Origin: Stigmatella ashevillensis
GTDB taxonomy: Bacteria > Myxococcota > Myxococcia > Myxococcales > Myxococcaceae
Direction: 5' to 3'
DNA length: 32,000 nt
NCBI RefSeq assembly: GCF_028368975.1
Contig: NZ_JAQNDM010000002.1
Span: forward strand, 3,186,425-3,218,424
Of the stretch, positions 15,857-26,800 are shown piece by piece; position 1 is the first letter of the stretch, and each line of letters begins with the position of its first letter. Below the pieces are notes generated by a model, which saw nothing but the letters and a program-made list of their open reading frames with translations, made no database searches and had not been told where the DNA came from. Both the position numbers and the translations under genes were made by a program.

Positions 15857-16429
15857 TCAAGGCAAGGAGTACGTCACGGCGGGGGGCAGCAGAATCCTCA
15901 CCGGGTCTCCTGGCCGGATGACGCCCGGGCGATCCACCCACCCCACCAGCCCTCGCCGCTGGTGCGCGGCCTTCACGAAGCGGCTCGCCAGGCCTTCCCG
16001 GTCCGGATACCAGGGCTGCAGCGCCCGCCCCGCCTTCCGGCACGGCGTGTTCTCCCCTTCCATCGTCAGGATGACCTCTTCGGGGAAGAACAGGCGCGTC
16101 CCGGGAGGCAGGTGCGTCAGCCGGGGCACCCCCGCCAGCTCCAGGTTCGCGCCCAGCCAGGCCGCCTCCACCCGGGGCACCTCCAGCGCCGCCGCGATGA
16201 GCGCCAGTTCCTCCGTGGACACGAGGGAGACCTGGCGCGTGTTGCGCACGAGCGCGCCCTTGGGACACCAGGGCGTGCGCACATCCGACGTGCGTGTCAG
16301 CCCCGCGTGCCGGTCTCCCACGAAACCTTCCAGGGACACCTTCCCCTCGGGCACCTCGCGCGCAGGGTGATTCTTTGGCTCGGAGCCGATGAGGACGCGA
16401 ACCGTGTGCCCGGTGAGGTGCGTGCGCAT
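15857..16429 (-). CDS. MOSC domain-containing protein
   Basis: EGFVGDRHAG...RQVSLVSTEEL...LGANLELAG...PPGTRL...LTMEGENTPCRKAG fits the MOSC beta-barrel pattern, including the conserved Cys. Start at ATG 16429 (MRTHLTGHTV), 8 nt after the upstream stop. The longer track ORF (to 17038) is an out-of-frame run through the MBL gene. Confidence 0.85.
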   Translation of the reverse strand: MRTHLTGHTVRVLIGSEPKNHPAREVPEGKVSLEGFVGDRHAGLTRTSDVRTPWCPKGALVRNTRQVSLVSTEELALIAAALEVPRVEAAWLGANLELAGVPRLTHLPPGTRLFFPEEVILTMEGENTPCRKAGRALQPWYPDREGLASRFVKAAHQRRGLVGWVDRPGVIRPGDPVRILLPPAVTYSLP

Positions 16430-16437
16430 GAAGGGCC

Positions 16438-17412
16438 TCAGAAGAGCGAGAGCTGCTGGGGCTTGCCCAGCGTGCGCGCGTCGATGCCTTCCTCCCGCAG
16501 CAGCCGCGCCAGCTCCTCCGCGAAGCCGTGGTGCGTGATGACCTCGCGAGCCCCCGTGGCCTTCACATAGCCCACCAGCGAGGGGCAGTCCGCATGGTCC
16601 GAGAGGGGAAAGGCCACCTGCGCGCCATAGCGATGCGCGGCGCCTGGATCCAACGCCCACCCCGTGAGCACCGCGGTGGCGCGCGGCCACACGGGCGCCA
16701 GGGCCCCCGTGCGCGCCTGATGCGGTGGGAAGAAGAGCACCTCTCCCGGCTGCACCGTCCCCTCGAAGCGCCGCAGCGGCTCGATGCGCACGCCCAGCTC
16801 CGCGTAGAGCTGTGTCACCTCGAAGATGGAGGGGTGCGCCACCAGCGGGAAGCCGCGTCCAGAGAGGTACTTCATCGCCTCCTGGCTCTTGCCCAGGGGA
16901 TAGCCCAGCAACACGGGCACCGCCCCCCGTTCGAGCTGCTGGCGCACCCACGCCTCCACCCTGCCCAGCACTTCGTCCTTCGGCGGAAAGCGGTACCGCG
17001 GATGGCCGAACGTGGCCTCGATGACGAGCGTGTCGCACTCGGCCACCTGCACCGGCTCCGCCGTGAGCGAGGGCGTGACGTTCAGATCCCCCGTATAGAC
17101 GATGCGACGCCCATCCCCCCGGATGACGCGGAGCTGGGCACTGCCCAGGATGTGGCCCGCCGAGAGCAACTCCAACGTCAGGGGACCCAGCTCGAACGGC
17201 TGGTTGTAGGCCACCGCCACCGGGTCCTTCACCCGGCCCAGCCGGTGCGTCATGAAGCGCAGGGTGGCGGCCGTGGCGATGGTCCGCTCATGGCGCGCGA
17301 TGTGGTCCGAGTGCCCGTGGCTGACGAAGGACAGCGGCGTCTTGCGCATCGCATCCAGCGCCAGCGGGGTACCCGTCAGGTGAAGTCCGGTTCGCCTCAA
17401 CTCGACGCTCAT
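16438..17412 (-). CDS. MBL-fold metallo-hydrolase, beta-CASP-like (COG1236-type nuclease/hydrolase)
   Basis: VSHGHSDHI (HxHxDH), SAGHILGS and IEATFG, with a C-terminal PLSDHAD...VITHHG typical of beta-CASP motifs. Start taken at ATG 17412 (MSVELRRTGLHLTG). Confidence 0.82.
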   Translation of the reverse strand: MSVELRRTGLHLTGTPLALDAMRKTPLSFVSHGHSDHIARHERTIATAATLRFMTHRLGRVKDPVAVAYNQPFELGPLTLELLSAGHILGSAQLRVIRGDGRRIVYTGDLNVTPSLTAEPVQVAECDTLVIEATFGHPRYRFPPKDEVLGRVEAWVRQQLERGAVPVLLGYPLGKSQEAMKYLSGRGFPLVAHPSIFEVTQLYAELGVRIEPLRRFEGTVQPGEVLFFPPHQARTGALAPVWPRATAVLTGWALDPGAAHRYGAQVAFPLSDHADCPSLVGYVKATGAREVITHHGFAEELARLLREEGIDARTLGKPQQLSLF

Positions 17413-17502
17413 GGGGAAGCCTGGATATAGCGCGCCTGGGACCGCAGGGGGGGACATGCTCCACGACGCGCCCGCCCGCCCGTCCGCCCTGCCTGCGAAA
17501 CC

Positions 17503-18420
17503 TCAGGCCCCCGCCAGGGGCCGCTCGCGCCAGCGGTCCCACAAGGCCGAGCCCACCTCCGACACCAGCACGCCCAGCACGATGAGGCTGCCCCCGCTCC
17601 ACTCCCGGGGGCCCAGCGTCTCGTATCCCAGCGACACCGAGAAGAGCGCGGCGAACACCGGCTCCAGCGCATAGATGAGGGCCGCGCGCACCGCGCCCGT
17701 GCGGGCCTGGGCCCACGTCTGCACGCTGATCGCGACGGCGCTGCCGAGGACGCCACAGAAGAACACGGCCCCCACGAAAGCCCCTGTCCACGCCACCCGC
17801 GTCTCCACGAAGGGCAGGCACGCCGCCGAGAGCAGCGCCACGCCCCAGAGCTGCACGGCGACGAGCGCGCTGGCCCCTTCCTTCGGCGCGAACCGCCCCG
17901 TCAGGACAATGTGGAGGGCATAGGACACCGAGCCCGCCAGCGTGAGCAGGTCTCCCGAGGAGATCCCCCCGGAGGCCTCCTCGCCCGCGTGCGTGAGAAA
18001 GAAGAGCCCCACGGTCGAGAGCACCACCCCCACCAGCGAGGGGACGCGAGGAACCCGGCGAAAGAGCACCAAGGTCAGCAGCGGAACGAAGAGGACACAC
18101 AGGCCCGTGATGAAGGCCGAGCGCGCGGGCGAGGTGTGCGTCAGCCCCACCGTCTGAAACACGTACCCGCTGAAGAGGAAGAGGGACAGCAGGCCCCCTC
18201 GCCGCAGGTAATCCCCGGAGAGCATCCGCCGCCCCGCCACGGCGCTCAGCACCACGGCCCCCAGGCCAAAGCGCAGCACGAGGAACGAGAAGGGATCTCC
18301 ATGGCCCAACGCGTCCTTCACCACCACGAAGGTGGTGCCCCAAAACACGGTGAGCAGCGCCAGGGCGCCGTCCGCCTGGAGATGGGCGCGACGCTCCCGC
18401 GGTGAAGTCACTTCGGCCAT
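17503..18420 (-). CDS. EamA/DMT-family transporter (about 10 TM)
   Basis: Two EamA-like halves. The sequence is hydrophobic throughout: LLTVFWGTTFVVVKDAL..., ...ALIYALEPVFAALFSVSLGYE... Start at ATG 18420 (MAEVTSPRERRAHLQ). Confidence 0.88.
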   Translation of the reverse strand: MAEVTSPRERRAHLQADGALALLTVFWGTTFVVVKDALGHGDPFSFLVLRFGLGAVVLSAVAGRRMLSGDYLRRGGLLSLFLFSGYVFQTVGLTHTSPARSAFITGLCVLFVPLLTLVLFRRVPRVPSLVGVVLSTVGLFFLTHAGEEASGGISSGDLLTLAGSVSYALHIVLTGRFAPKEGASALVAVQLWGVALLSAACLPFVETRVAWTGAFVGAVFFCGVLGSAVAISVQTWAQARTGAVRAALIYALEPVFAALFSVSLGYETLGPREWSGGSLIVLGVLVSEVGSALWDRWRERPLAGA

Positions 18421-18454: not shown

Positions 18455-19420
18455 TCAATCCAATGCGCGCTCCAACACCACCAAGGGCTTGCTGCCCCCC
18501 GAGGCATCCCACTCGGCGTTGACCCGCCGGATAAGCTCTGGGGGCGAGAAGCGAAACCCCACCCTCCGGAACGTCCTCAGGGAGGCGGCGTTGTCCTCAT
18601 CGACATCCGCGAAGATGCATTCCTCGCCCTGCTTTCGCGCCGCTTCCACCAGACAGGTAAGGAGCTGGTGGGCCACCCCCATCCTCCGGGCTCTCGGCGC
18701 CACCACCAACGAGCGGACCCAGAGCCCGTCCAGCGCCAGCCCTTCCTCGCGGTAGCTGTCCAGGTAGGCGAACCCACACAGGCGGCCCGCCGAGTCGAAG
18801 GCTCCCGCCGAAGCCCCCACCGCCCCTCCCTCCCGCGCCCACCGGCCCAGCAGTTGGCGGCGCAGGAACACCGAGGAGACCAGGAGCCGTTCCCCGGCGA
18901 ACACCAGGAGCGCGTCCAGATCCTCGGCCCGAAGCAGGCGCACCTCCAGCCGCCCCAACCACCGCGCCCGCACGGGGCGGGACCACCCCGAGAAGGTGAA
19001 GTCCCGCAGCCGCCGAGCCGCGCCCCTCGCCACGGGACGGGCCCACAACGCGGAAGCCAACCGCTGCCCCAGAAAGAGCGAAGGCCGCGTCACGCGGGGC
19101 AAGGGCAAAATCCACCACCCCCGGCGCAGGGCCGTCACACGCCCGAGCGGAACTCCCTCGGGATCTCCGTGGCCCAGCAAGGAGGCCGTCACCAAGGGGC
19201 CCGTGGAAACCACCACGTGCGCGATGAGCCGACGCCCCACCCTCACCAGCGCCACATCGCCCCGGGACAGCTCCTCCGGCCCACAGCGAAGCACCTGGAT
19301 CGAATCTCCGCTGCGCAGCAAGGGATACAGGCTCCGGCCCGCCCCTCGCAGCCAGAGCCGACGGCCCAGAGACGTGGACTCGACGAAGGCCGCGAGATCA
19401 ACCGGGTGTGTGCCAACCAT
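18455..19420 (-). CDS. Fusion protein: N-terminal S24/S26 (signal-peptidase/LexA-like) peptidase domain plus C-terminal GNAT acetyltransferase
   Basis: GRSLYPLLRSGD matches the G-x-S-[ML]-x-P-x-L-x-x-G-D catalytic-Ser box (Ser30). GDVALVRVGRRLIAHVVV resembles the GD...I.HRV strand of His-type S26B enzymes (His68). C-terminal GLWVRSLVVAPRARRMGVAHQLL is GNAT motif A, followed by DNAASLRTFRRVGF. ATG 19420 overlaps the kinase gene by 23 nt. Confidence 0.78.
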   Translation of the reverse strand: MVGTHPVDLAAFVESTSLGRRLWLRGAGRSLYPLLRSGDSIQVLRCGPEELSRGDVALVRVGRRLIAHVVVSTGPLVTASLLGHGDPEGVPLGRVTALRRGWWILPLPRVTRPSLFLGQRLASALWARPVARGAARRLRDFTFSGWSRPVRARWLGRLEVRLLRAEDLDALLVFAGERLLVSSVFLRRQLLGRWAREGGAVGASAGAFDSAGRLCGFAYLDSYREEGLALDGLWVRSLVVAPRARRMGVAHQLLTCLVEAARKQGEECIFADVDEDNAASLRTFRRVGFRFSPPELIRRVNAEWDASGGSKPLVVLERALD

Positions 19421-20165
19421 GAAGCCAGTCCCTCACGAAGCCCGCCGCGGCGGCGTCCTTCCGGAAGACGAACCTGCGGATTTCGACACATGAGAGGATG
19501 CGAACCAACCGCTGGAGCACCTCCCCCTGCGACGCCTCGCCCGGCAGCGGACGGAAGACCTGCGCCATCATCGCCGCAATGGCCTCGGGGGCTGCCACCG
19601 CCTCCAACCGCTCCTCGCCGCCCTTCTCCAGCAACAGCACCGCGGCCAACTGCGCCCGGGCGAGCGACGAGGGCAGATCCAGATCCGAGCAGAACGGGCT
19701 GCCCTCGACGCGCGCCCCGGGGTAGAGCCCGAGCACTTCGTCCGAGAGCACTTCGGCCCCGGCCTCCCGGGCGCACAGCCGGGTGAAGGTGGACTTGCCC
19801 GCCCCGCTGGGCCCGATGGCCACCACCGCCCGTCCCTGGAAGGCCACCCCGGCGGCATGCAGCAACAGGCCTCCCTGGCGCAGCGTGGCCAGTTGCATCC
19901 CCACCCGCAGCGCCAGTTCAGTATCTAGGAAGGCCTGAGGGGGCTCCACCCGCACCACATCGCCCTCTACCCGGAAGCGGGGACCCGAGGGCCGACGAGG
20001 GTCGAGGGGCATGCTCGGCCCCTCGGGCAAGGCCCCCGCCCGGAGACTCAGGCGGGGAGCGCCGTCTTCGGCCAGGAACGGGGCCAACGCGCACCGTGCC
20101 CCTACCTGGGTCAGCAGCCCCTCATCCACTCCCACGCTCCACTCCCCGAACCGCAGTCGCCGCAT
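19398..20165 (-). CDS. HprK-like P-loop kinase (HPr kinase C-terminal-domain family), stand-alone
   Basis: LHAAGVAFQGRAVVAIGPSGAGKSTFTRLCAR..GAEVLSDEVLGL parallels the HprK catalytic core (lHg..v...g.GvLi.G.SG.GKS...L...G..lvaDD). No N-terminal HprK domain is present. Confidence 0.78.
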   Translation of the reverse strand: MRRLRFGEWSVGVDEGLLTQVGARCALAPFLAEDGAPRLSLRAGALPEGPSMPLDPRRPSGPRFRVEGDVVRVEPPQAFLDTELALRVGMQLATLRQGGLLLHAAGVAFQGRAVVAIGPSGAGKSTFTRLCAREAGAEVLSDEVLGLYPGARVEGSPFCSDLDLPSSLARAQLAAVLLLEKGGEERLEAVAAPEAIAAMMAQVFRPLPGEASQGEVLQRLVRILSCVEIRRFVFRKDAAAAGFVRDWLHGWHTPG

Positions 20166-20184
20166 CCGGGACCCTGCCGCCTCT

Positions 20185-20322
20185 TCAGCAGGCCCCCGTC
20201 TCTGGATCGATGATGCAGCTGGGCGTGAAGAGGTCCGGAACGAGAATCCGCTCCGAGCGCACCTGGGGAGGGGCGTAAGCCTTCTTCTTCTCCGCCTTCA
20301 CCGGCTGCACCGTGGTTGCCAT
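20185..20322 (-). CDS. 45-aa candidate precursor/substrate peptide: MATTVQPVKAEKKKAYAPPQVRSERILVPDLFTPSCIIDPETGAC
   Basis: Internal ATG (residue 26) of track ORF 20185..20397. Third-position G+C is 38/45 (84%) by hand count. AAGGAG lies directly upstream. It sits between the giant lipoprotein gene and the kinase gene on the same strand. The 75-nt upstream extension overlaps the giant gene and reads as junk (MEKWTWPWVIVSRIQPGSWC). Confidence 0.6.
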   Translation of the reverse strand: MATTVQPVKAEKKKAYAPPQVRSERILVPDLFTPSCIIDPETGAC

Positions 20323-20325
20323 GGT

Positions 20326-20331
20326 CTCCTT
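20326..20331 (-). promoter_or_regulatory. Shine-Dalgarno (AAGGAG) for the 45-aa peptide gene
   Basis: The minus strand reads GTG TAT TAC TAA GGA GAC C ATG. The SD overlaps the TAA stop of the giant gene. Spacing to the ATG is only 3 nt, which is short. Full AAGGAG sites are uncommon elsewhere in this window. Confidence 0.55.
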
Positions 20332-23300
20332 AGTAATACACCACGACCCGGGCTGGATTCGACTGACTATCACCCACGGCCAGGTCCATTTTTCCATCCC
20401 CGTTGAAGTCCAGAATGGTCAAACTGATTCCAAGCGACGTCGTGGATGCCAGCTTGGACTGCCAGAAGCCATTCTCCTGGGCAAGGTCGAACTCGGCCCC
20501 CGGAATGCCCTGGTTGTAGAAGACGGCCGCGGCGTTCTGCCCGACGACGTTCTGGCCCACGGCGATGTCGACGCGTCCATCTCCGTTCAAGTCCCCCAGG
20601 GCCAGGGCGTTGCCGAAACGGCCGCCACCGACGATCTCCACCGGCGCCGTGGGGAAGCCCGAAGGGCCTCCATCCCGGAACACGAAGACCTTGCTCTGGG
20701 TGGCCGAGGAGGCCACCAGATCCAGCCCCGCGCCCCCCACCAGGTTCACCCCGCCAAAGGCCTCGGTGCCAAAGCCGTTCTGCGAGTTGCCGGTCGTATC
20801 GGGCCCCTGGTGAATCACCTGGAGCGCGTCCGTCGTGGACACGTTCCGGCCCAGGGCGTGAACCGCGGCGCCTGAATAGACATAGAGGTTGTTGACCCGC
20901 TCATGGGAGGCCGGGACGGTGAAATCCGCGACGCCATCGCCCGTGATGTCCCCCAGGCGCACGTAGCCACGGGAGCGTCCGAAGAAGACCATCCCCGTGG
21001 GGGCCGTGAAGACCTTGTCGGACTTGCTCGTGGGCACGACGCAGGCGGAGGTGGCGTTGCAGCCTGTTCCCAAGGCCCGCCAAGCCTCCGGCGTGCGGCT
21101 GTAGAAGAGGTAGACCTTTCCGGGCGTCTCGCCGTGCGAGCTGAGCAGCAGCTCATGAAGCCCGTCCCCGTTGATGTCCTGGATCATCTTCACCGAGCCG
21201 CCCAGCGTGGCCCCGGTGATGGCCGTGTCATGCCGGAACTCGATGGGGGCCGTCGTGTCCAGCACCTGGCCCTTCCGGCCAAAGTAGAGGAACGCCCGGC
21301 CGGAGTTGGACGTCCAGCCACGAGAGCCCACCAGCAGGTCCGCCACCGGCTCCGAGGTGGCGTTGCCGACATCACCGACATCGAAGTCACTCCCATAGGC
21401 TTGAGCGCCCGTCTCCGGGACCGTCAATTCCTGCCGAACCGGCGGGGAGCCCACCGGATCGCTGCTGCCGTAGTACACGTACGCCGAGCCCGGATTGCCC
21501 AGGACGCCTGTCACGATCAGGTCTTCCCTGCCATCCGCGTTCAGATCTCCCCGGGCGGTAATATAGGTGGCGTAGCTGTTGCTCGGGACGCCTGGGTTCG
21601 TCACCGTCACCTGCCGCCAGAAGTTGTCGATCTGTGGCTGCACCGCGAAGGGCGCGTAGTTGCCAATCTCGTCCCGGGGACGGAGCTGGATGGAGTAACG
21701 GGCCAGGGGCGGCAACGTCAGCGTGTAGGCCGTGGACGTGGCAGGCAGCAGCGCTCCCGTTTCCTGCTTCACCTTCCCGCCGAAGAAGGTCGCCTCGTTC
21801 TCGATGCCGTTCAGAAGCTGGGCGTTGACCGTCCACCGCAGGTCATAGCCCACCCCCATGCCGGACAGCCCGTCATCTCCACTCGCCGTCCACGACACCT
21901 GCACCTTGGCCGCCCGCTCCTGGCCGGGCACCAACGCCATCGTCACGGTGGGCGCCGCGGGAGGCACCACGTCCACGGTGGCCGTGACGGTGTGGCGCGC
22001 CGTGTTCCCGGACGCATCCACCACGCGCACCTCGAGCGTGCCATCCGTGTTGTGCGGCAACGTCACGGGAAGCTCCAGGGTCTCCGGCGAGGCGGAGATC
22101 GTGAACTCCGAGGAGACGGAAGCTCCCTTGTAGAGCGCCTGCACCGTGCTGCCCACGCCCTGCGTCACGGTGAGTGTGAACACCGCATTGGCATCCCCGC
22201 CCGGGGACATGTCCACCACGCGGTCCGGTGCAGGAGATGGGAAGAGATAGGCGTTGGTGCTCGCGACGAAGAAGAGCGCCGTGGGGGAGGGAGAGATGGA
22301 GGTGATGAGCGGGGGCGTGATGTCCACCGTCACGTCCACGAAGTCGACAGCCCTCAGCCCCGAGATGTTGAACACCTCCACGGCCAGGCGTGTCTGATCG
22401 CCGTCCGCGAGCGTCACATCGAAGAAGAACGCCCCCGTCGCCGGATCCGCGGTGACGGCATCCTCCGGTGTGGTCGAGCCTCCCTTGTAGAGAATCACCT
22501 CGCGGCCATTGCATGCCGGCGTGATACCGGCCAGGCGGTACTGCAACCCCGCCGCCGAGGGGTCCAGATCGTCCTGGGCAAGCAACGTGGCCACCGGCTC
22601 ACTCGGCGTGGTGAGCGTGATGGCACAGCCAGGGATTTTCACATCGACGTTGGCCTTGGAATCACTGCCCGCGTTTCCAGCGGTATCACGGGCCACGGCC
22701 GAGACGGTCTGCACGCCCACGGGGAAGTTGAGCGTGCCTTGCGCGACTCCCGAGACGACCGGCAGGGTCCCCACCACCGCGGCGGGAGCGCTCCCCACCT
22801 GCGAGAGGATGCTCACCGTGCTCACGTCCCCTCCTGCCACATTGACCTGAACGGGGATGTCCGTGTTGTCGTAGACAGCGCTCGCCGCGGGGGCCACCAG
22901 CGTCACGGTGGGGGCTTCCAGATCCACCGTCAGGGTCCGGACCACCGAGGTCTCGTTGCCCGAGGTGTCCACGGCAACCACCGAGAGCGTGTACTCCGTC
23001 TTGCCTGTGCCCGGCACGGTGAACTCATGCGTGGCCACCAGCTCGGAAGGCGTCAGCGACACCGGATTTCCCCCCGGGGAGAGCAACATCCGCACACCGC
23101 CCGCGCCCACGTCCGCGCTCGTGTTGATGGCCGCCCGGAGCTGGAAGCCGACGGCCGTCGAGCCGTCATCCGCGAGGCCGAACTCGGTGCGCGTGGGCGC
23201 GCTCACCACCAACGAAGGCGGGACTCGGTCCAGGCGGAAGGCGAAGAAGGCCGCCGTGTTGAGCGGATAGAAGGGGGTCGGATTGAGCACCCGGTTCTGA

Positions 23301-26134
23301 TTGCCCGCAGCGTCCGTCACGGTCACGACGAGCGCGTAGTCCGCCTCGATACCGGTGGGCATCGCATCGAGGGAGACGGTGGCCAGGCCACCGCCGGCAT
23401 TGCCCTGGCCATAGACGATGCCGGGATTGCTGGCGTTGCGAACCTGGACCGGCCGCCCATCTTCCAGACCGTCAATGGTCACCCGGAGCTGCACGGAGCC
23501 TGTGGGCCACTCGACGGCATTCAGCCGCCGATCCCCGTTGACGTCTCCCACCAGTTCCACGGCACGCACCACCGGCTCGGTGCTGTCCACGGTGATGTTC
23601 ACCGACTGAGACACGGAGATGGCCCCGTCGTCGAGAACGGCGCGCAGGGCGTAGCGCCCATCGGGGTAGGTGAAATCCGGGGTGAAGGCCGGCACGTTGG
23701 CGGCCAGGGTGTACCAGCCCGAGCCATCCCGGCAGGGCGCGGCATCCTGGCTCGGCGCCACGCTCGCGCAGATGTCCACGACGGCGTTCGCCGAACGTCC
23801 ATTCGCGGCGTACTTCAGGGGCGCCTGGATGCCCGACTCCTCGGGCGTGACGTCGGAGTTCACGACGTAGACCGGGGCGGGGGAAGCCGCGGGAATCTCC
23901 AGGGCGATGTTGCCCGGCTGGGTGTCCACCAGGAGCAGCACCGTGGCGCAGGCCACCGTGCCTCCGGGGCCGATGAGCTCGGCGCGCAGCACGTTGGAGC
24001 CCTCTTCCAGCTCCACGGTGTTGAACCGCTTCGTCCGCTCGTTCGCGGCGACATCCACCACGGCGATCTCGGTGGCCCCGCGCAGCAATCGCAGCTTGCT
24101 GGCCGCCTGGGTGTCCACGCTCAGGGTGACCGAGACACTCAACCCGCCGTTGGGCAGCACGATGCCATCCGTGGCCCCCAGGTACCGGCCAATCGCGGGG
24201 GTCTCGAAGGCCAGCGAACTCGGAGAGAAGGCCAGGGTCAGCGCCCGGACTTGCTCGCTGGTGTTGCCCGCCAGATCCGTGGAGGCGACTTGCAACAGAC
24301 ATTCGCCGCTGAGCGGCACGGAGACGTCCCTCAACACGAGCGCCCCGTGGTCATCGGCCTGTCCCGCCACCCCCGCGGCCAGGGCGCACCCCGTGACGAG
24401 CACCGAGGCGTACGGCTCGGTCTCCACCTCGAGGGCCACTTGCATGCCCGGAGCCAGAGACGTGTCGTTGAGCCCGAAGCCCAGAACAGTCTCTCCGGCG
24501 GGCACACCGCGCACCTGGAACGCCAGCACCGGCGGCGTGGAGTCCAGCTCCAGGGAGAGCAGCTGACTCGTGGCGCCCCCTGGACAGGAGGCCAGGAGCC
24601 GGTACGCGCCATCGCTCTCCAAGAGGAGCGAAACCAGCGCCGACCCCGAAGATGCGACGGCGGTGCTCCGTCCCCGCTCATTGCCATTCACATCCAAGGC
24701 CACCACGGTGACCGGCCCGGCCCCCGACTCCACGCGGACCGAGGTGTTCATGCCCGTGGTGGGAATCAGGGTGCCATTGTCCGGCGAGATGATGCGGCAG
24801 ACGGGCTGGCCCGTGGTGACCGTGACGGTCTCCGCCAGGCACTGCTCCAAACCCGCTGCATTGCGGACACAGGCCTGAACGGCATTGGCGCCCCCCGCCA
24901 GTTGCACGGTGAAGGCCGCCTCGCGCCCACCGTTCGTCACCGCCCGCTGCGGCTGGGCGAACTTGCCGGTGACGCTGGTGAAGAGCGTCACCTGGGTGCC
25001 AGGAGGCAGCGAGTCCACCTGGACGGTCACCGGTACCTGCACGCCGTTGTCGAGCCGGCCGTCCACCGGATCCTCCGAGAGGCTCTTCGGCACCACCAAT
25101 TTGAGGGTTGGCGTCGTGCTGGCCACCGTGACGGGAACCTGCCGGGTGGAGACATTGCCCCCCGCATCGGAGACTTTCAGCGTGAAGAGGTAATCCCCAT
25201 CCACCGGCACCGTGACGGCGGGGAACGTCACGCCTCCGGAAATGACGGGGGCGGACAGATCCGGCGCGCCAACCCGGGACAGGGTGGCCAACACACCGGG
25301 CTCGGTACACCCCACGGTGGCCTCCACCCGGAACGTCGTGGACGCCACCGCCGCCACTGGCCAGGCCAGTTCCACGCGCGGAGACACCGTGTCCAACGTG
25401 ATGTGGCGCCGGCCGGACGTCACCTCGTCATCGCCATTGCGGACCACCGCGTAGCACTGGGCTTCCTGGGACTCGCATGCGAACTGGGACAGCGTCACCT
25501 CGACCTGGGTGGCCCCATTGCCCGCCACGGTGAAGTCCGTGGGAGGCACCCCACACGCCTGCTCGCAATAGATCGTGCCCTTTCTTCCCGACAGGCCCAC
25601 GGCATTCACGCTGAAGCGCAGCTGGTAGCCGGGCGAATCCGGGTTCGCGTCATCCGCCTCGAGCAGCACCTCGCCTTCGGGGGGCTGCGTCAGATCCACC
25701 GATGGCGGCTCCGAGGTCACCGTGACGCTGATGCGCTGGGTGGCCGTGCGCCGCGAGCTGGCCTCCTCCACCGTCACCTGCAGCACGTTGGTGCGCGACT
25801 GCAACAGCGCCGCCGGGAAGCGGGCCGTGTCCCCCTCGATGAGGGCCTTGGGCCCCTCCGTCCATCCCTGCTCGGACGGCGTGCGCACCTCCAGCTTCGC
25901 GCTGGCCAGCTTCACCGCCCGGCCCGAGGTGTCCCGGGCCCGCACCACCACCTCGTGCTGGAAGCCGTCGGTGGCCGTGTCCTCATCATCGGAGAGCACC
26001 AGCCGCTGCCCGTCCACGGGCTTCTCGAACCCCACCTCCAGCTCCGACTCCACCGGTGGCTCGCCGCAGCTGCATCCGGACGCACTCCACAGCGCGAGCC
26101 CCATCAACAGCCACTGCCACATCGATCGGCGCAT
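20330..26134 (-). CDS. Giant (about 1,934 aa) secreted protein or probable lipoprotein: tandem bacterial Ig-like domains, an FN3-like domain, and a C-terminal seven-repeat FG-GAP/VCBS beta-propeller
   Basis: Signal peptide MRRSMWQWLLMGLALWSASGC from ATG 26134 (GGGAGA SD 4 nt upstream); an alternative GTG 26203 overlaps the PqqD stop. Recurrent Ig-domain ends carry D.AGN/D.SGN (VSDAGGN, STDLAGN, VTDAAGN, AVDTSGN, ARDTAGN, VVDASGN). The last ~430 aa (about 20333-21625) carry FG-GAP calcium-loop repeats: GDLNADGREDLIV, QDINGDGLHELLL, GDITGDGVADFTV, GDLNGDGRVDIAV, LDFNGDGKMDLAV. Confidence 0.9.
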   Translation of the reverse strand: MRRSMWQWLLMGLALWSASGCSCGEPPVESELEVGFEKPVDGQRLVLSDDEDTATDGFQHEVVVRARDTSGRAVKLASAKLEVRTPSEQGWTEGPKALIEGDTARFPAALLQSRTNVLQVTVEEASSRRTATQRISVTVTSEPPSVDLTQPPEGEVLLEADDANPDSPGYQLRFSVNAVGLSGRKGTIYCEQACGVPPTDFTVAGNGATQVEVTLSQFACESQEAQCYAVVRNGDDEVTSGRRHITLDTVSPRVELAWPVAAVASTTFRVEATVGCTEPGVLATLSRVGAPDLSAPVISGGVTFPAVTVPVDGDYLFTLKVSDAGGNVSTRQVPVTVASTTPTLKLVVPKSLSEDPVDGRLDNGVQVPVTVQVDSLPPGTQVTLFTSVTGKFAQPQRAVTNGGREAAFTVQLAGGANAVQACVRNAAGLEQCLAETVTVTTGQPVCRIISPDNGTLIPTTGMNTSVRVESGAGPVTVVALDVNGNERGRSTAVASSGSALVSLLLESDGAYRLLASCPGGATSQLLSLELDSTPPVLAFQVRGVPAGETVLGFGLNDTSLAPGMQVALEVETEPYASVLVTGCALAAGVAGQADDHGALVLRDVSVPLSGECLLQVASTDLAGNTSEQVRALTLAFSPSSLAFETPAIGRYLGATDGIVLPNGGLSVSVTLSVDTQAASKLRLLRGATEIAVVDVAANERTKRFNTVELEEGSNVLRAELIGPGGTVACATVLLLVDTQPGNIALEIPAASPAPVYVVNSDVTPEESGIQAPLKYAANGRSANAVVDICASVAPSQDAAPCRDGSGWYTLAANVPAFTPDFTYPDGRYALRAVLDDGAISVSQSVNITVDSTEPVVRAVELVGDVNGDRRLNAVEWPTGSVQLRVTIDGLEDGRPVQVRNASNPGIVYGQGNAGGGLATVSLDAMPTGIEADYALVVTVTDAAGNQNRVLNPTPFYPLNTAAFFAFRLDRVPPSLVVSAPTRTEFGLADDGSTAVGFQLRAAINTSADVGAGGVRMLLSPGGNPVSLTPSELVATHEFTVPGTGKTEYTLSVVAVDTSGNETSVVRTLTVDLEAPTVTLVAPAASAVYDNTDIPVQVNVAGGDVSTVSILSQVGSAPAAVVGTLPVVSGVAQGTLNFPVGVQTVSAVARDTAGNAGSDSKANVDVKIPGCAITLTTPSEPVATLLAQDDLDPSAAGLQYRLAGITPACNGREVILYKGGSTTPEDAVTADPATGAFFFDVTLADGDQTRLAVEVFNISGLRAVDFVDVTVDITPPLITSISPSPTALFFVASTNAYLFPSPAPDRVVDMSPGGDANAVFTLTVTQGVGSTVQALYKGASVSSEFTISASPETLELPVTLPHNTDGTLEVRVVDASGNTARHTVTATVDVVPPAAPTVTMALVPGQERAAKVQVSWTASGDDGLSGMGVGYDLRWTVNAQLLNGIENEATFFGGKVKQETGALLPATSTAYTLTLPPLARYSIQLRPRDEIGNYAPFAVQPQIDNFWRQVTVTNPGVPSNSYATYITARGDLNADGREDLIVTGVLGNPGSAYVYYGSSDPVGSPPVRQELTVPETGAQAYGSDFDVGDVGNATSEPVADLLVGSRGWTSNSGRAFLYFGRKGQVLDTTAPIEFRHDTAITGATLGGSVKMIQDINGDGLHELLLSSHGETPGKVYLFYSRTPEAWRALGTGCNATSACVVPTSKSDKVFTAPTGMVFFGRSRGYVRLGDITGDGVADFTVPASHERVNNLYVYSGAAVHALGRNVSTTDALQVIHQGPDTTGNSQNGFGTEAFGGVNLVGGAGLDLVASSATQSKVFVFRDGGPSGFPTAPVEIVGGGRFGNALALGDLNGDGRVDIAVGQNVVGQNAAAVFYNQGIPGAEFDLAQENGFWQSKLASTTSLGISLTILDFNGDGKMDLAVGDSQSNPARVVVYY

Positions 26135-26199
26135 TCGTCTCCCACCCTCTCCAGCGGCAGGCCGTGGGCCTGCGGCTCGCGACATCAGCGCAAGGGACC

Positions 26200-26550
26200 T
26201 CACGGCCCCAGCACCAGCACCTTCTTCGCCACGAGGAGCCGGAGGAAGGCGACCGTGTCCGCTTCACACGCCTCCGGTTCCACCTCGAATTCGTCACACA
26301 GCACCGCCACGATGTCCGCCACCGTCCGGCGGCCATCCACCAACTCCACGATGCGCTCGGCCACCTCGGACACCTGACCCCGGGCGTCCTCGAACAGGTG
26401 CAGGTGCTCATCGGGCCCCGCAGCCATCAGCCGCCCACCCACGCGCTGCACCCCCGTCTCCGGATGCAGCCGAGGCACGGCGCGCAGCACCTCCCGGCCC
26501 GCCTCCGCGGGAGCTTTCGTTCCATCTTTGTTGGAAACGAATCCAGCCAC
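26200..26550 (-). CDS. PqqD-family protein (RiPP recognition element-type peptide chaperone)
   Basis: ...HLHLFEDARGQVSEVAERIVELVDGRRTVADIVAVLCDEFEVEPEACEADTVAFLRLLVAKKVL fits the PqqD winged-helix pattern (LN.tg..iw.l.DG.rtv.eI...l..ey.v......Dv..fl..L). GTG start with a GGGAGA SD 6 nt upstream. First gene after a 250-bp divergent intergenic region. Confidence 0.8.
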   Translation of the reverse strand: MAGFVSNKDGTKAPAEAGREVLRAVPRLHPETGVQRVGGRLMAAGPDEHLHLFEDARGQVSEVAERIVELVDGRRTVADIVAVLCDEFEVEPEACEADTVAFLRLLVAKKVLVLGP

Positions 26551-26672
26551 TTGAATCTCCCGGAGGCCTGCCCCCCGGCCTGGAGCTTCCCGGCCTCACG
26601 GAATCTGAAGGCATGCTATCCGCGAAGATCCGGCCCGGCCAAATCCCTGATCTCCTCAGTCCCCTCACGGAT

Positions 26673-26744
26673 CAAGGTTTTGGAAGAAATCCCCGGAACT
26701 CCCCAGGGCCCGCACAAGGATTTGGGCGGAAACCGCGAAACCGC
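26673..26744. promoter_or_regulatory. Direct repeats in the divergent control region upstream of the PqqD operon
   Basis: CAAGGtTTTGG at 26673 and CAAGGaTTTGG at 26715 are 42 bp apart; the 27-nt units match 19/27. A tandem GAAACCGC GAAACCGC sits at 26729-26744. Confidence 0.35.
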
Positions 26745-26800
26745 TATGACGGGGCGGCGCCAGACTCCCACGAGGGAGGGCGACACGATGGGGAGGGCGG

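Follow-up and report, generated by a model that had tools for sequence, protein, structure and literature searches.

The window analysed here, a 32,000-nt stretch of Stigmatella ashevillensis DNA with a G+C content of ~67%, encodes on its minus strand a 321-aa protein (18455..19420) in which an N-terminal S26B/SipW-type peptidase domain is followed by a two-helix linker and a C-terminal GNAT acyltransferase domain. Sequence comparisons indicate that this S26-GNAT protein is probably a bifunctional maturation enzyme, acting in a myxobacterial pathway for peptides made on ribosomes and modified after translation (RiPPs) that is related to the pathways of linear polyphosphorylated peptides (LPPs). 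The peptidase step by itself, with the N-domain acting as a leader peptidase, can be proposed with good confidence because of its homology to a characterised enzyme and the comparative genomics of its loci. The best candidate substrate, well supported by comparison, is a 45-aa precursor peptide encoded by a conserved small open reading frame (ORF) at 20185..20322 on the minus strand.

The S26-GNAT gene lies in a minus-strand cassette with the order PqqD-family RiPP recognition element (RRE), giant FG-GAP lipoprotein, 45-aa precursor, HprK-like kinase, S26-GNAT and EamA transporter; the flanking genes encode ETF-alpha and a Coa1-like protein on one side, and EamA, a metallo-beta-lactamase (MBL) exonuclease and a MOSC protein on the other. 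The initial annotation had called the 18455..19420 ORF a peptidase-GNAT fusion, and both domains were confirmed by profile, fold and relatives. In particular, the peptidase domain (residues 1-110; 19091..19420, minus strand) is identified by Foldseek, by transitive Pfam and NCBIfam membership and by hhalign to LppS, the peptidase of the LPP pathway. The basic linker (residues 111-156; 18953..19090, minus strand), with AlphaFold helices at 113-127, 129-144 and 148-155, has the lowest conservation of any segment of the protein, and the GNAT domain (residues 157-321 with the stop codon; 18455..18952, minus strand) is matched by five Pfam GNAT models. Among named relatives, a protein of Stigmatella erecta is the closest, at 89% identity, and a genome search finds a single S26-like copy. 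The in-frame fusion is retained across dozens of genomes at 35-90% identity, which places it far beyond chance. Overall, 40 of 148 representative relatives (clusters) carry a GNAT, and three carry a C-terminal PqqD domain in its place.

By fold prediction and comparison with its relatives, the N-domain is a member of the S24/S26 clan, as first proposed for it, and an S26B-type Ser/His(/Asp) peptidase. Because GNAT matches dominate the Foldseek search with the full-length model, a separate AlphaFold model of residues 1-140 was needed (built from 24 orthologues of the fetched loci; pLDDT 77). With this model, the top ranks against the PDB contain only the LexA C-domain, lambda cI, UmuD, SipA and SpsB/LepB (best E 4.8e-4; target TM-score up to 0.69). 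Further, a phmmer search with residues 1-147 against 1.84 billion cluster representatives retrieved 242 relatives, 115 of which were aligned; 59 of the 115 match Peptidase_S24 (PF00717), 41 match the archaeal/S26B-type signal peptidase I model TIGR02228 (best E 1e-15), 13 match the nickel superoxide dismutase (NiSOD) maturation protease model and six match SipW, while distant relatives carry GxSMxPxL ... AHRV ... RGDxxxxxDP boxes. Against PDB sequences, phmmer with the full protein and hmmsearch with the narrow 24-sequence N-domain profile returned only GNATs or noise. The two residues initially assigned as catalytic, Ser30 (codon 19331-19333) and His68 (19217-19219), are at least 90% conserved among the 115 diverse relatives, and Asp86 (19163-19165) adds a predicted third member; the coordinates of all three minus-strand codons were checked. 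Among aligned orthologues, Ser30 differs in 9 of 29 and His68 in 8 of 30.

The characterised enzyme closest to this domain comes from the LPPs that Popov et al. described in Bacillota, Paenibacillus alginolyticus among them (Nat Commun 2026; PMC13381572, May 2026). The LPP core genes encode the SipW-like peptidase LppS, the discrete RRE LppB, the HprK-like kinase LppK, the NTP-transferase LppN and the MsbA-like pump LppD (PMC13381572). Leader removal by LppS requires the RRE, and the substitutions S29A, H68A and D93A each abolish cleavage (PMC13381572). Direct comparisons with CHARACTERISED enzymes were made with LppS for the N-domain, and with BsfK and a Chondromyces kinase-RRE protein for the kinase. 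With the LppS sequence taken from Supplementary Data 1 of PMC13381572 and a 24-sequence N-domain alignment as the query, hhalign gives a probability of 94.8% and an E-value of 5e-8 over 85 columns, and places Ser30, His68 and Asp86 on LppS S29, H68 and D93; BLASTP between the N-domain and LppS gives 27% identity (E 6e-7). Moreover, an AlphaFold3 model has the N-terminal helix of LppS docking on the RRE-leader sheet (PMC13381572), and the N-terminal helix that AlphaFold predicts at residues 9-15 of the S26-GNAT matches the position of that LppS helix.

The S26-GNAT has no N-terminal hydrophobic anchor, its top two 19-mers (Kyte-Doolittle 1.66 and 1.64) falling on strands and a helix predicted within the folded domains, and the Pfam and NCBIfam scans found no DNA-binding domain in it; hydrophobicity profile and profile scans thus agree with the initial annotation on both points. 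Since it has no terminal hydrophobic segment to serve as a membrane anchor, the enzyme, as judged from its sequence, is not a secretory signal peptidase.

The distribution of the predicted triad across loci ties it to the other cassette genes. In Myxococcus/Pyxidicoccus-type loci (L007, L008, L010-L017 and L023), a clean ~7 kb deletion between the Coa1-like and S26-GNAT genes has removed the PqqD, giant lipoprotein, peptide and kinase genes (for example, L015:7100-8000 compared with 19421-26800 of the window), leaving an orphan S26-GNAT that keeps ETF-alpha and the Coa1-like gene as neighbours on one side and, at most of these loci, also EamA and the MBL exonuclease on the other. In the rows for all fetched loci, which are partly redundant, phylogenetically related and not independent, copies with an adjacent kinase have Ser/His in 36 rows and Cys/His in three, with His lost in none. 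Of the 34 rows for orphan copies lacking an adjacent kinase, 15 show Ser/His, and in the other 19 Ser, His or both are lost (with the combinations D/R, G/Q, G/H, C/H, S/Q, C/Q and D/Q). Some of the same decayed copies have Asp86 changed to E or A. Every locus with peptide, RRE and kinase keeps His68 and Asp86, together with Ser30 or a Cys at its position. The N-domain/GNAT identity ratio is 0.86-0.94 in the decayed orphans and mostly at least 1.0 elsewhere, so that the N-domain evolves faster than the GNAT where the triad has decayed. As triad decay occurs only where the partner genes are deleted, selective maintenance of the triad appears to be tied to the peptide, the RRE and the kinase. The initial annotation had allowed that the domain might lack a Ser/His dyad, or that the fusion might be a housekeeping family with unrelated genomic contexts; loss of the dyad is found in orphan copies only, with the dyad present elsewhere, and all loci with an intact triad share the conserved context.

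Two other patterns were seen at these loci. L032, from the same GTDB genus group as the deleted loci, retains the kinase and the peptide. L019/L061 and L068 have an intact cassette in which Cys replaces the Ser nucleophile (GGCM and GHCM) and His and Asp are kept; they may represent a natural Ser-to-Cys nucleophile swap.

The same distribution bears on whether the S26-like domain is an enzyme at all. It could instead be a non-catalytic peptide-binding or chaperone module, comparable to Streptococcus pyogenes SipA, that hands its substrate to the GNAT as the sole enzyme; SipA (4n31) is among the fold matches, and many Myxococcus/Pyxidicoccus orthologues without Ser and/or His keep the domain at ~60% identity. 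This is quite improbable in view of the retention of His68, Asp86 and Ser30 or Cys wherever peptide, RRE and kinase are encoded, the conservation of Ser and His in the 115 relatives, and the essential role of the three equivalent positions in LppS.

The precursor has the features of a leader-guided RiPP substrate. Its leader (M1-F32) carries the motif Y16-A-P-P19-Q-V21 and ends in L31-F32 at positions -2/-1, and its predicted core (T33-C45, TPSCIIDPETGAC) has 13 residues. A [Y/W]xxPx[L/V/I] motif is found in 32 of 32 distinct versions of the precursor, all of which start with a basic N-terminus and run through the motif and a hydrophobic stretch into a Cys-rich tail that varies. The core register was set by placing Tyr at -17, the lasso/LPP register taken from PMC10368454 and PMC13381572; lasso leaders have Tyr, Pro and Leu at -17, -14 and -12, respectively (PMC10368454). 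In this register, Leu occupies -2 in 29 of the 32 versions and Phe occupies -1 in 26, and conservation stops exactly at the predicted -1 position. The cores have a Ser or Thr at +3 in 24 versions and within +1 to +3 in 29, share no conserved Lys, and contain an even number of Cys (2, 4, 6 or 8) in all 32, which suggests that the Cys pairs form disulfides. The core of L070 begins AQSN, resembling the LppA core AQSNWK. The initial annotation had presumed that a 45-aa ORF was the peptidase substrate; the LppS alignment, the RRE/kinase/YxxPxV context and the triad decay all support that assignment.

The first cassette gene (26200..26550, minus strand) encodes a 116-aa PqqD-family RRE that matches Pfam PF05402 above its cut-off (E 5.2e-13) and, among PDB sequences, weakly matches PqqD and the lasso B1 proteins TbiB1 and TfuB1; all cassette-bearing loci with a long enough flank have a PqqD RRE gene upstream of the giant gene. 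The kinase gene (19398..20165, minus strand) encodes 255 aa with the P-loop GPSGAGKST, and its end overlaps the start of the S26-GNAT gene by 23 nt. Its identification as an HprK-like peptide kinase draws on matches to the NCBIfam models HprK_rel_A (1.5e-6) and HprK_rel_B (2.3e-5), both under their cut-offs, and on a profile built from 31 cassette kinases, which reaches 42.6 bits with BsfK, a characterised lasso kinase (translated from its gene as given in PMC10368454); with the Chondromyces kinase-RRE protein, which adjoins a signal peptidase I homologue (SpI), this profile reaches 61 bits. A PDB sequence search with the kinase gave P-loop noise only and no HprK.

These same genes raise the question of a lasso peptide, whose precursor would be matured by B2 and C enzymes encoded elsewhere, with the S26-GNAT as an accessory tailoring enzyme. 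The YxxPxL-type leader motif is shared with lasso precursors, and phosphorylated lasso clusters contain both a PqqD RRE and an HprK-like kinase. However, the best match to the B2 peptidase model PF13471 in the whole 100%-complete genome scores 22.1 bits against a cut-off of 26, no cyclase is encoded in the cassette (the rest of the genome was not searched for one), some orthologous cores have no Asp or Glu (e.g., ATHCTSCTPQCPQLC), and the window core has just 13 residues. The lasso reading is accordingly very hard to sustain and was rejected on the missing above-threshold B2, the missing cassette cyclase and the cores without acidic residues. The only B2-family match of the genome, the sub-threshold one of 22 bits, lies at G000:C1:3247641-3247856, ~29 kb past the window end and within a 508-aa frame.

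In the LPP-related pathway, maturation would proceed in five steps. By homology, the PqqD RRE would first bind the Y16-x-x-P-x-V21 leader motif of the 45-aa precursor. The kinase, by analogy with BsfK and LppK, would then phosphorylate a Ser or Thr at the core start, most likely Ser35 at core position 3. Ser30, His68 and Asp86 of the S26B-type domain would next cut the RRE-presented peptide after Leu31-Phe32, the N-terminal helix probably docking on the RRE-leader sheet as in LppS. The fused GNAT would acylate the core after its release, most plausibly at the alpha-amine newly exposed on Thr33; this is the weakest step of the scheme. Finally, and speculatively, the Cys pair would be converted to a disulfide after export, possibly via EamA.

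The GNAT assignment made initially, on the basis of motif A, holds: PF00583 matches residues ~157-321 with 50.5 bits against a cut-off of 20.7 (E 3e-13), PF13302, PF13508, PF08445 and PF13673 also score above their cut-offs, and motif A (R245-R-M-G248-V-A250) is conserved in 30 orthologues, with R245 invariant and G248 at least 90% conserved. PDB sequence and fold searches match PA4866, YncA, RimI, Ard1 and Naa60 (fold E down to 7e-8), among which the N-terminal acetyltransferases RimI, Ard1 and Naa60 are loose structural neighbours. The S26-GNAT matches HaaN (NCBIfam NF041716) weakly (E 0.13), and two relatives do so at E ≤ 1e-3. Because the cores share no Lys, the new alpha-amine of the core can be put forward as the acylation target, though tentatively and with somewhat less than even confidence.

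Several observations weigh against a bifunctional leader peptidase-acyltransferase, besides the non-independence of the locus rows. The N-terminal ~110 aa have no Pfam or NCBIfam match at E ≤ 1, and thus no direct Pfam peptidase match. The Phe or Leu at -1 departs from classical signal-peptidase sites, where the residues at -1/-3 are small. The giant gene stands invariably between the RRE and precursor genes, which neither this reading nor any rival accounts for. The GNAT is lost or truncated in the cassette-bearing L025-L027 (Archangium), L063 and L073, where EamA follows directly; because such lineages exist, acylation is not essential to the pathway. Further, GNAT motif A is still conserved in orphans that have neither peptide nor triad, so that the GNAT may have another or an additional, peptide-independent substrate.

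The last two points also favour a different division of labour, in which the N-domain is the leader peptidase but the GNAT modifies a side chain, a small molecule or a self-protection target, or transfers a longer acyl group, the fusion serving only for co-expression or scaffolding. Such a GNAT could be dispensable in some cassette-bearing lineages and conserved in orphans that have lost the peptide, the RRE, the kinase and the triad, and the best sequence matches of the domain are indeed small-molecule acetyltransferases (PA4866/phosphinothricin-type, ArsN and YncA). We consider this unlikely, though worth keeping in view: the in-frame fusion is stable in the 40 GNAT-bearing clusters and across many genera, the alpha-amine is the only amine common to all cores, and N-terminal acetyltransferases are among the structural neighbours of the domain.

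The giant gene (20330..26203, minus strand) encodes an Ig-like/FG-GAP surface lipoprotein of ~1,950 aa, with Pfam matches to FG-GAP, FG-GAP_3 and Big_13 and a lipobox-like N-terminus (LWSASGC), and in all cassette loci, those of remote genera included, its C-terminal end directly precedes the peptide gene. At 20323-20335, its TAA stop abuts the AAGGAG Shine-Dalgarno of the peptide gene, with a stop-to-ATG gap of 7 nt. This arrangement suggests that the peptide is translationally coupled to the ~1,950-codon giant ORF. As the giant gene is linked to the enzyme as tightly as the peptide gene, the giant lipoprotein could itself be what the peptidase domain cleaves; alternatively, the domain could cleave itself in the manner of LexA and UmuD, its nearest solved folds being the self-cleaving LexA, lambda cI and UmuD. 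Both are very improbable taken together. Self-cleavage is disfavoured by the absence of a LexA-type cleavage-site segment, there being only ~20 residues N-terminal to the domain, and cleavage of the giant protein by its predicted export as a lipoprotein, in contrast to an enzyme that has neither signal nor anchor; the RRE and the YxxPxV leader fit LPP-style presentation of the 45-aa peptide.

The EamA/DMT-family transporter (17503..18420, minus strand; Pfam EamA, E 1e-31) is downstream of the S26-GNAT gene in most loci, with a gap that is sometimes ~1.2-2 kb. It is a possible exporter of the peptide, but because it stays at orphan loci, its linkage may be plain synteny. It is followed by a ligase-associated DNA-damage-response MBL exonuclease (16438-17457, minus strand; TIGR04122, E 1e-62, under cut-off) and a MOSC protein (15857-16432, minus strand), which are also syntenic at orphan loci and therefore probably lie outside the cassette. 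Neither an NTP-transferase nor an ABC exporter is present among the cassette and flanking genes from ETF to MOSC.

The block of RRE, giant, peptide, kinase and S26(-GNAT) genes recurs in Stigmatella, Hyalangium, Archangium, Vitiosangium, Citreicoccus and metagenome-assembled genomes, and in 14 further genomes, mostly from remoter genera of the GTDB family, at 30-45% identity. In remote genera, the order of the cassette genes persists down to ~35% identity, and adjacency of the kinase to an S26-like gene is seen in at least 14 genomes from other genera. In other Myxococcota families, GNAT-less S26-like genes lie within a few kb of HprK-like kinases; a PqqD domain is present at four of six such loci, in one case fused to the S26-like domain.

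Variant architectures were also observed. In the relatives P0159, P0175 and P0177 and at L082:7769-8497, an S26-like domain is fused to a C-terminal PqqD RRE and not to a GNAT, and an 877-aa ORF at L081:7366-9996, a second locus of a Citreicoccus-like genome, contains an S26-like domain and a GNAT. Second, diverged S26-GNAT paralogues that keep Ser and His are found ~6 kb downstream of the first copy at L064:5698-6360 and directly downstream of it at L065:7770-8540. At L071 (G009:C1:6823007-6824173), kinase and S26-like matches share a single open frame of 604 aa, so that kinase and peptidase may be fused in this genus.

The initial annotation did not recognise the architecture as a described family, and this holds in part. 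A publication of May 2026 described RRE- and HprK-linked SipW-like leader peptidases in Bacillota; neither the GNAT fusion nor the cassette of the myxobacteria was in the literature found, and the literature searches returned no paper that describes an S24/S26-GNAT fusion or a myxobacterial PqqD/HprK cassette. In particular, the literature found did not contain the covalent joining of S26B and GNAT domains, the distribution of this fusion across the GTDB family Myxococcaceae, cores rich in Cys, a giant lipoprotein gene embedded in the cassette or the absence of LppN and LppD. Popov et al. stated that SpI-like peptidases were previously undescribed in RiPP pathways and that LPPs are restricted to Bacillota; their supplementary table lists a few stand-alone Myxococcota SpI homologues, one of them, from Chondromyces, adjoining a kinase-RRE fusion (PMC13381572). 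The word "acetyltransferase" is absent from the main text of PMC13381572, and GNAT fusions and Myxococcaceae entries were not found in its supplements.

SipW-like serine peptidases thus joined the RiPP leader peptidases only in 2026, and the loci compared here point to a logic of RRE, kinase and S26B peptidase that is widespread in Myxococcota. They imply that a leader peptidase and an acyltransferase can be joined in a single protein, a "cut and cap" enzyme of possible use in peptide engineering, and the Myxococcus-type orphans form a natural deletion experiment that links the catalytic triad to whether the peptide is present. They also point to a family of short, predicted disulfide-constrained myxobacterial peptides that is always encoded behind a giant adhesin-like gene. 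A bolder proposal, which we regard as speculative and rather unlikely, is that these peptides are a new class, phosphorylated, N-acylated and disulfide-locked, matured by a single peptidase-acyltransferase and tied in function to the co-translated giant FG-GAP (integrin-like) surface lipoprotein. The peptide would then be, for example, its ligand, cofactor or partner signal in cell-cell or predator-prey contact of myxobacteria, and the S26-GNAT fusion, if this were true, would be the defining enzyme of a new RiPP family, beyond an LPP variant.

Among known systems, LPPs offer the closest parallels. LPP precursors follow the consensus YxxPxVLxHQxIxFETxxS, and LppK polyphosphorylates core Ser3 (PMC13381572). 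The myxobacterial cassette shares with them a soluble SipW/archaeal-type SpI homologue with Ser, His and Asp at near-equal residue numbers, a discrete PqqD RRE and an HprK-like kinase with no macrolactam cyclase, and a YxxPxV leader with Ser at core position 3. In contrast to LPP, the peptidase is fused to a GNAT, LppN and the MsbA-like exporter LppD are absent with EamA downstream instead, a giant FG-GAP lipoprotein gene separates the RRE and precursor genes, and the short, Cys-rich cores contain Cys in even numbers. At its end the leader has Leu-Phe and not F-E-T, with Tyr at -17 and not -16, and the extended VLxHQxIxFET consensus is not found in the myxobacterial precursors. Further, the hosts are Myxococcota, and identity to LppS is ~26-27% over 59-85 residues.

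Phosphorylated lasso pathways (Bradymonas sediminis bsf and the paeninodin type) resemble the cassette in their YxxPxL leader, with Tyr(-17)/Pro(-14)/Leu(-12), and in their kinase, the cassette kinase profile matching BsfK. In the bsf pathway, the PqqD B1 protein also stimulates the kinase, and the HprK-like BsfK acts on core Ser3 (PMC10368454). Unlike these pathways, the S. ashevillensis genome has no B2 cysteine peptidase above cut-off and the cassette no C cyclase, the leader peptidase is a serine enzyme of the S26 family and not of the transglutaminase-like clan, and the cores are incompatible with a lasso fold.

The SipW, Sec11 and archaeal SpI enzymes (S26B) and SodX share with the N-domain the GxSMxP Ser box, the AH(R/V)V His box and a downstream Asp, and relatives of the N-domain match the TIGR02228, SipW and sod_Ni_protease models, for which the window protein itself is too diverged to match directly. 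SodX, the NiSOD maturation protease, is also a soluble S26 enzyme and removes an N-terminal propeptide. The S26-GNAT differs from the SipW, Sec11, archaeal SpI and SodX enzymes in having no membrane anchor, no Sec-type substrate and a fused GNAT.

Stand-alone RiPP N-acetyltransferases, such as HaaN of cyclophane RiPPs, GodH of goadsporin and MdnD of microviridin, provide the nearest precedent for the second half of the protein. They are likewise GNATs that acetylate a RiPP after or around leader removal. The S26-GNAT, by comparison, carries its GNAT in covalent fusion with the leader peptidase, and the peptide is the putative substrate of this GNAT.

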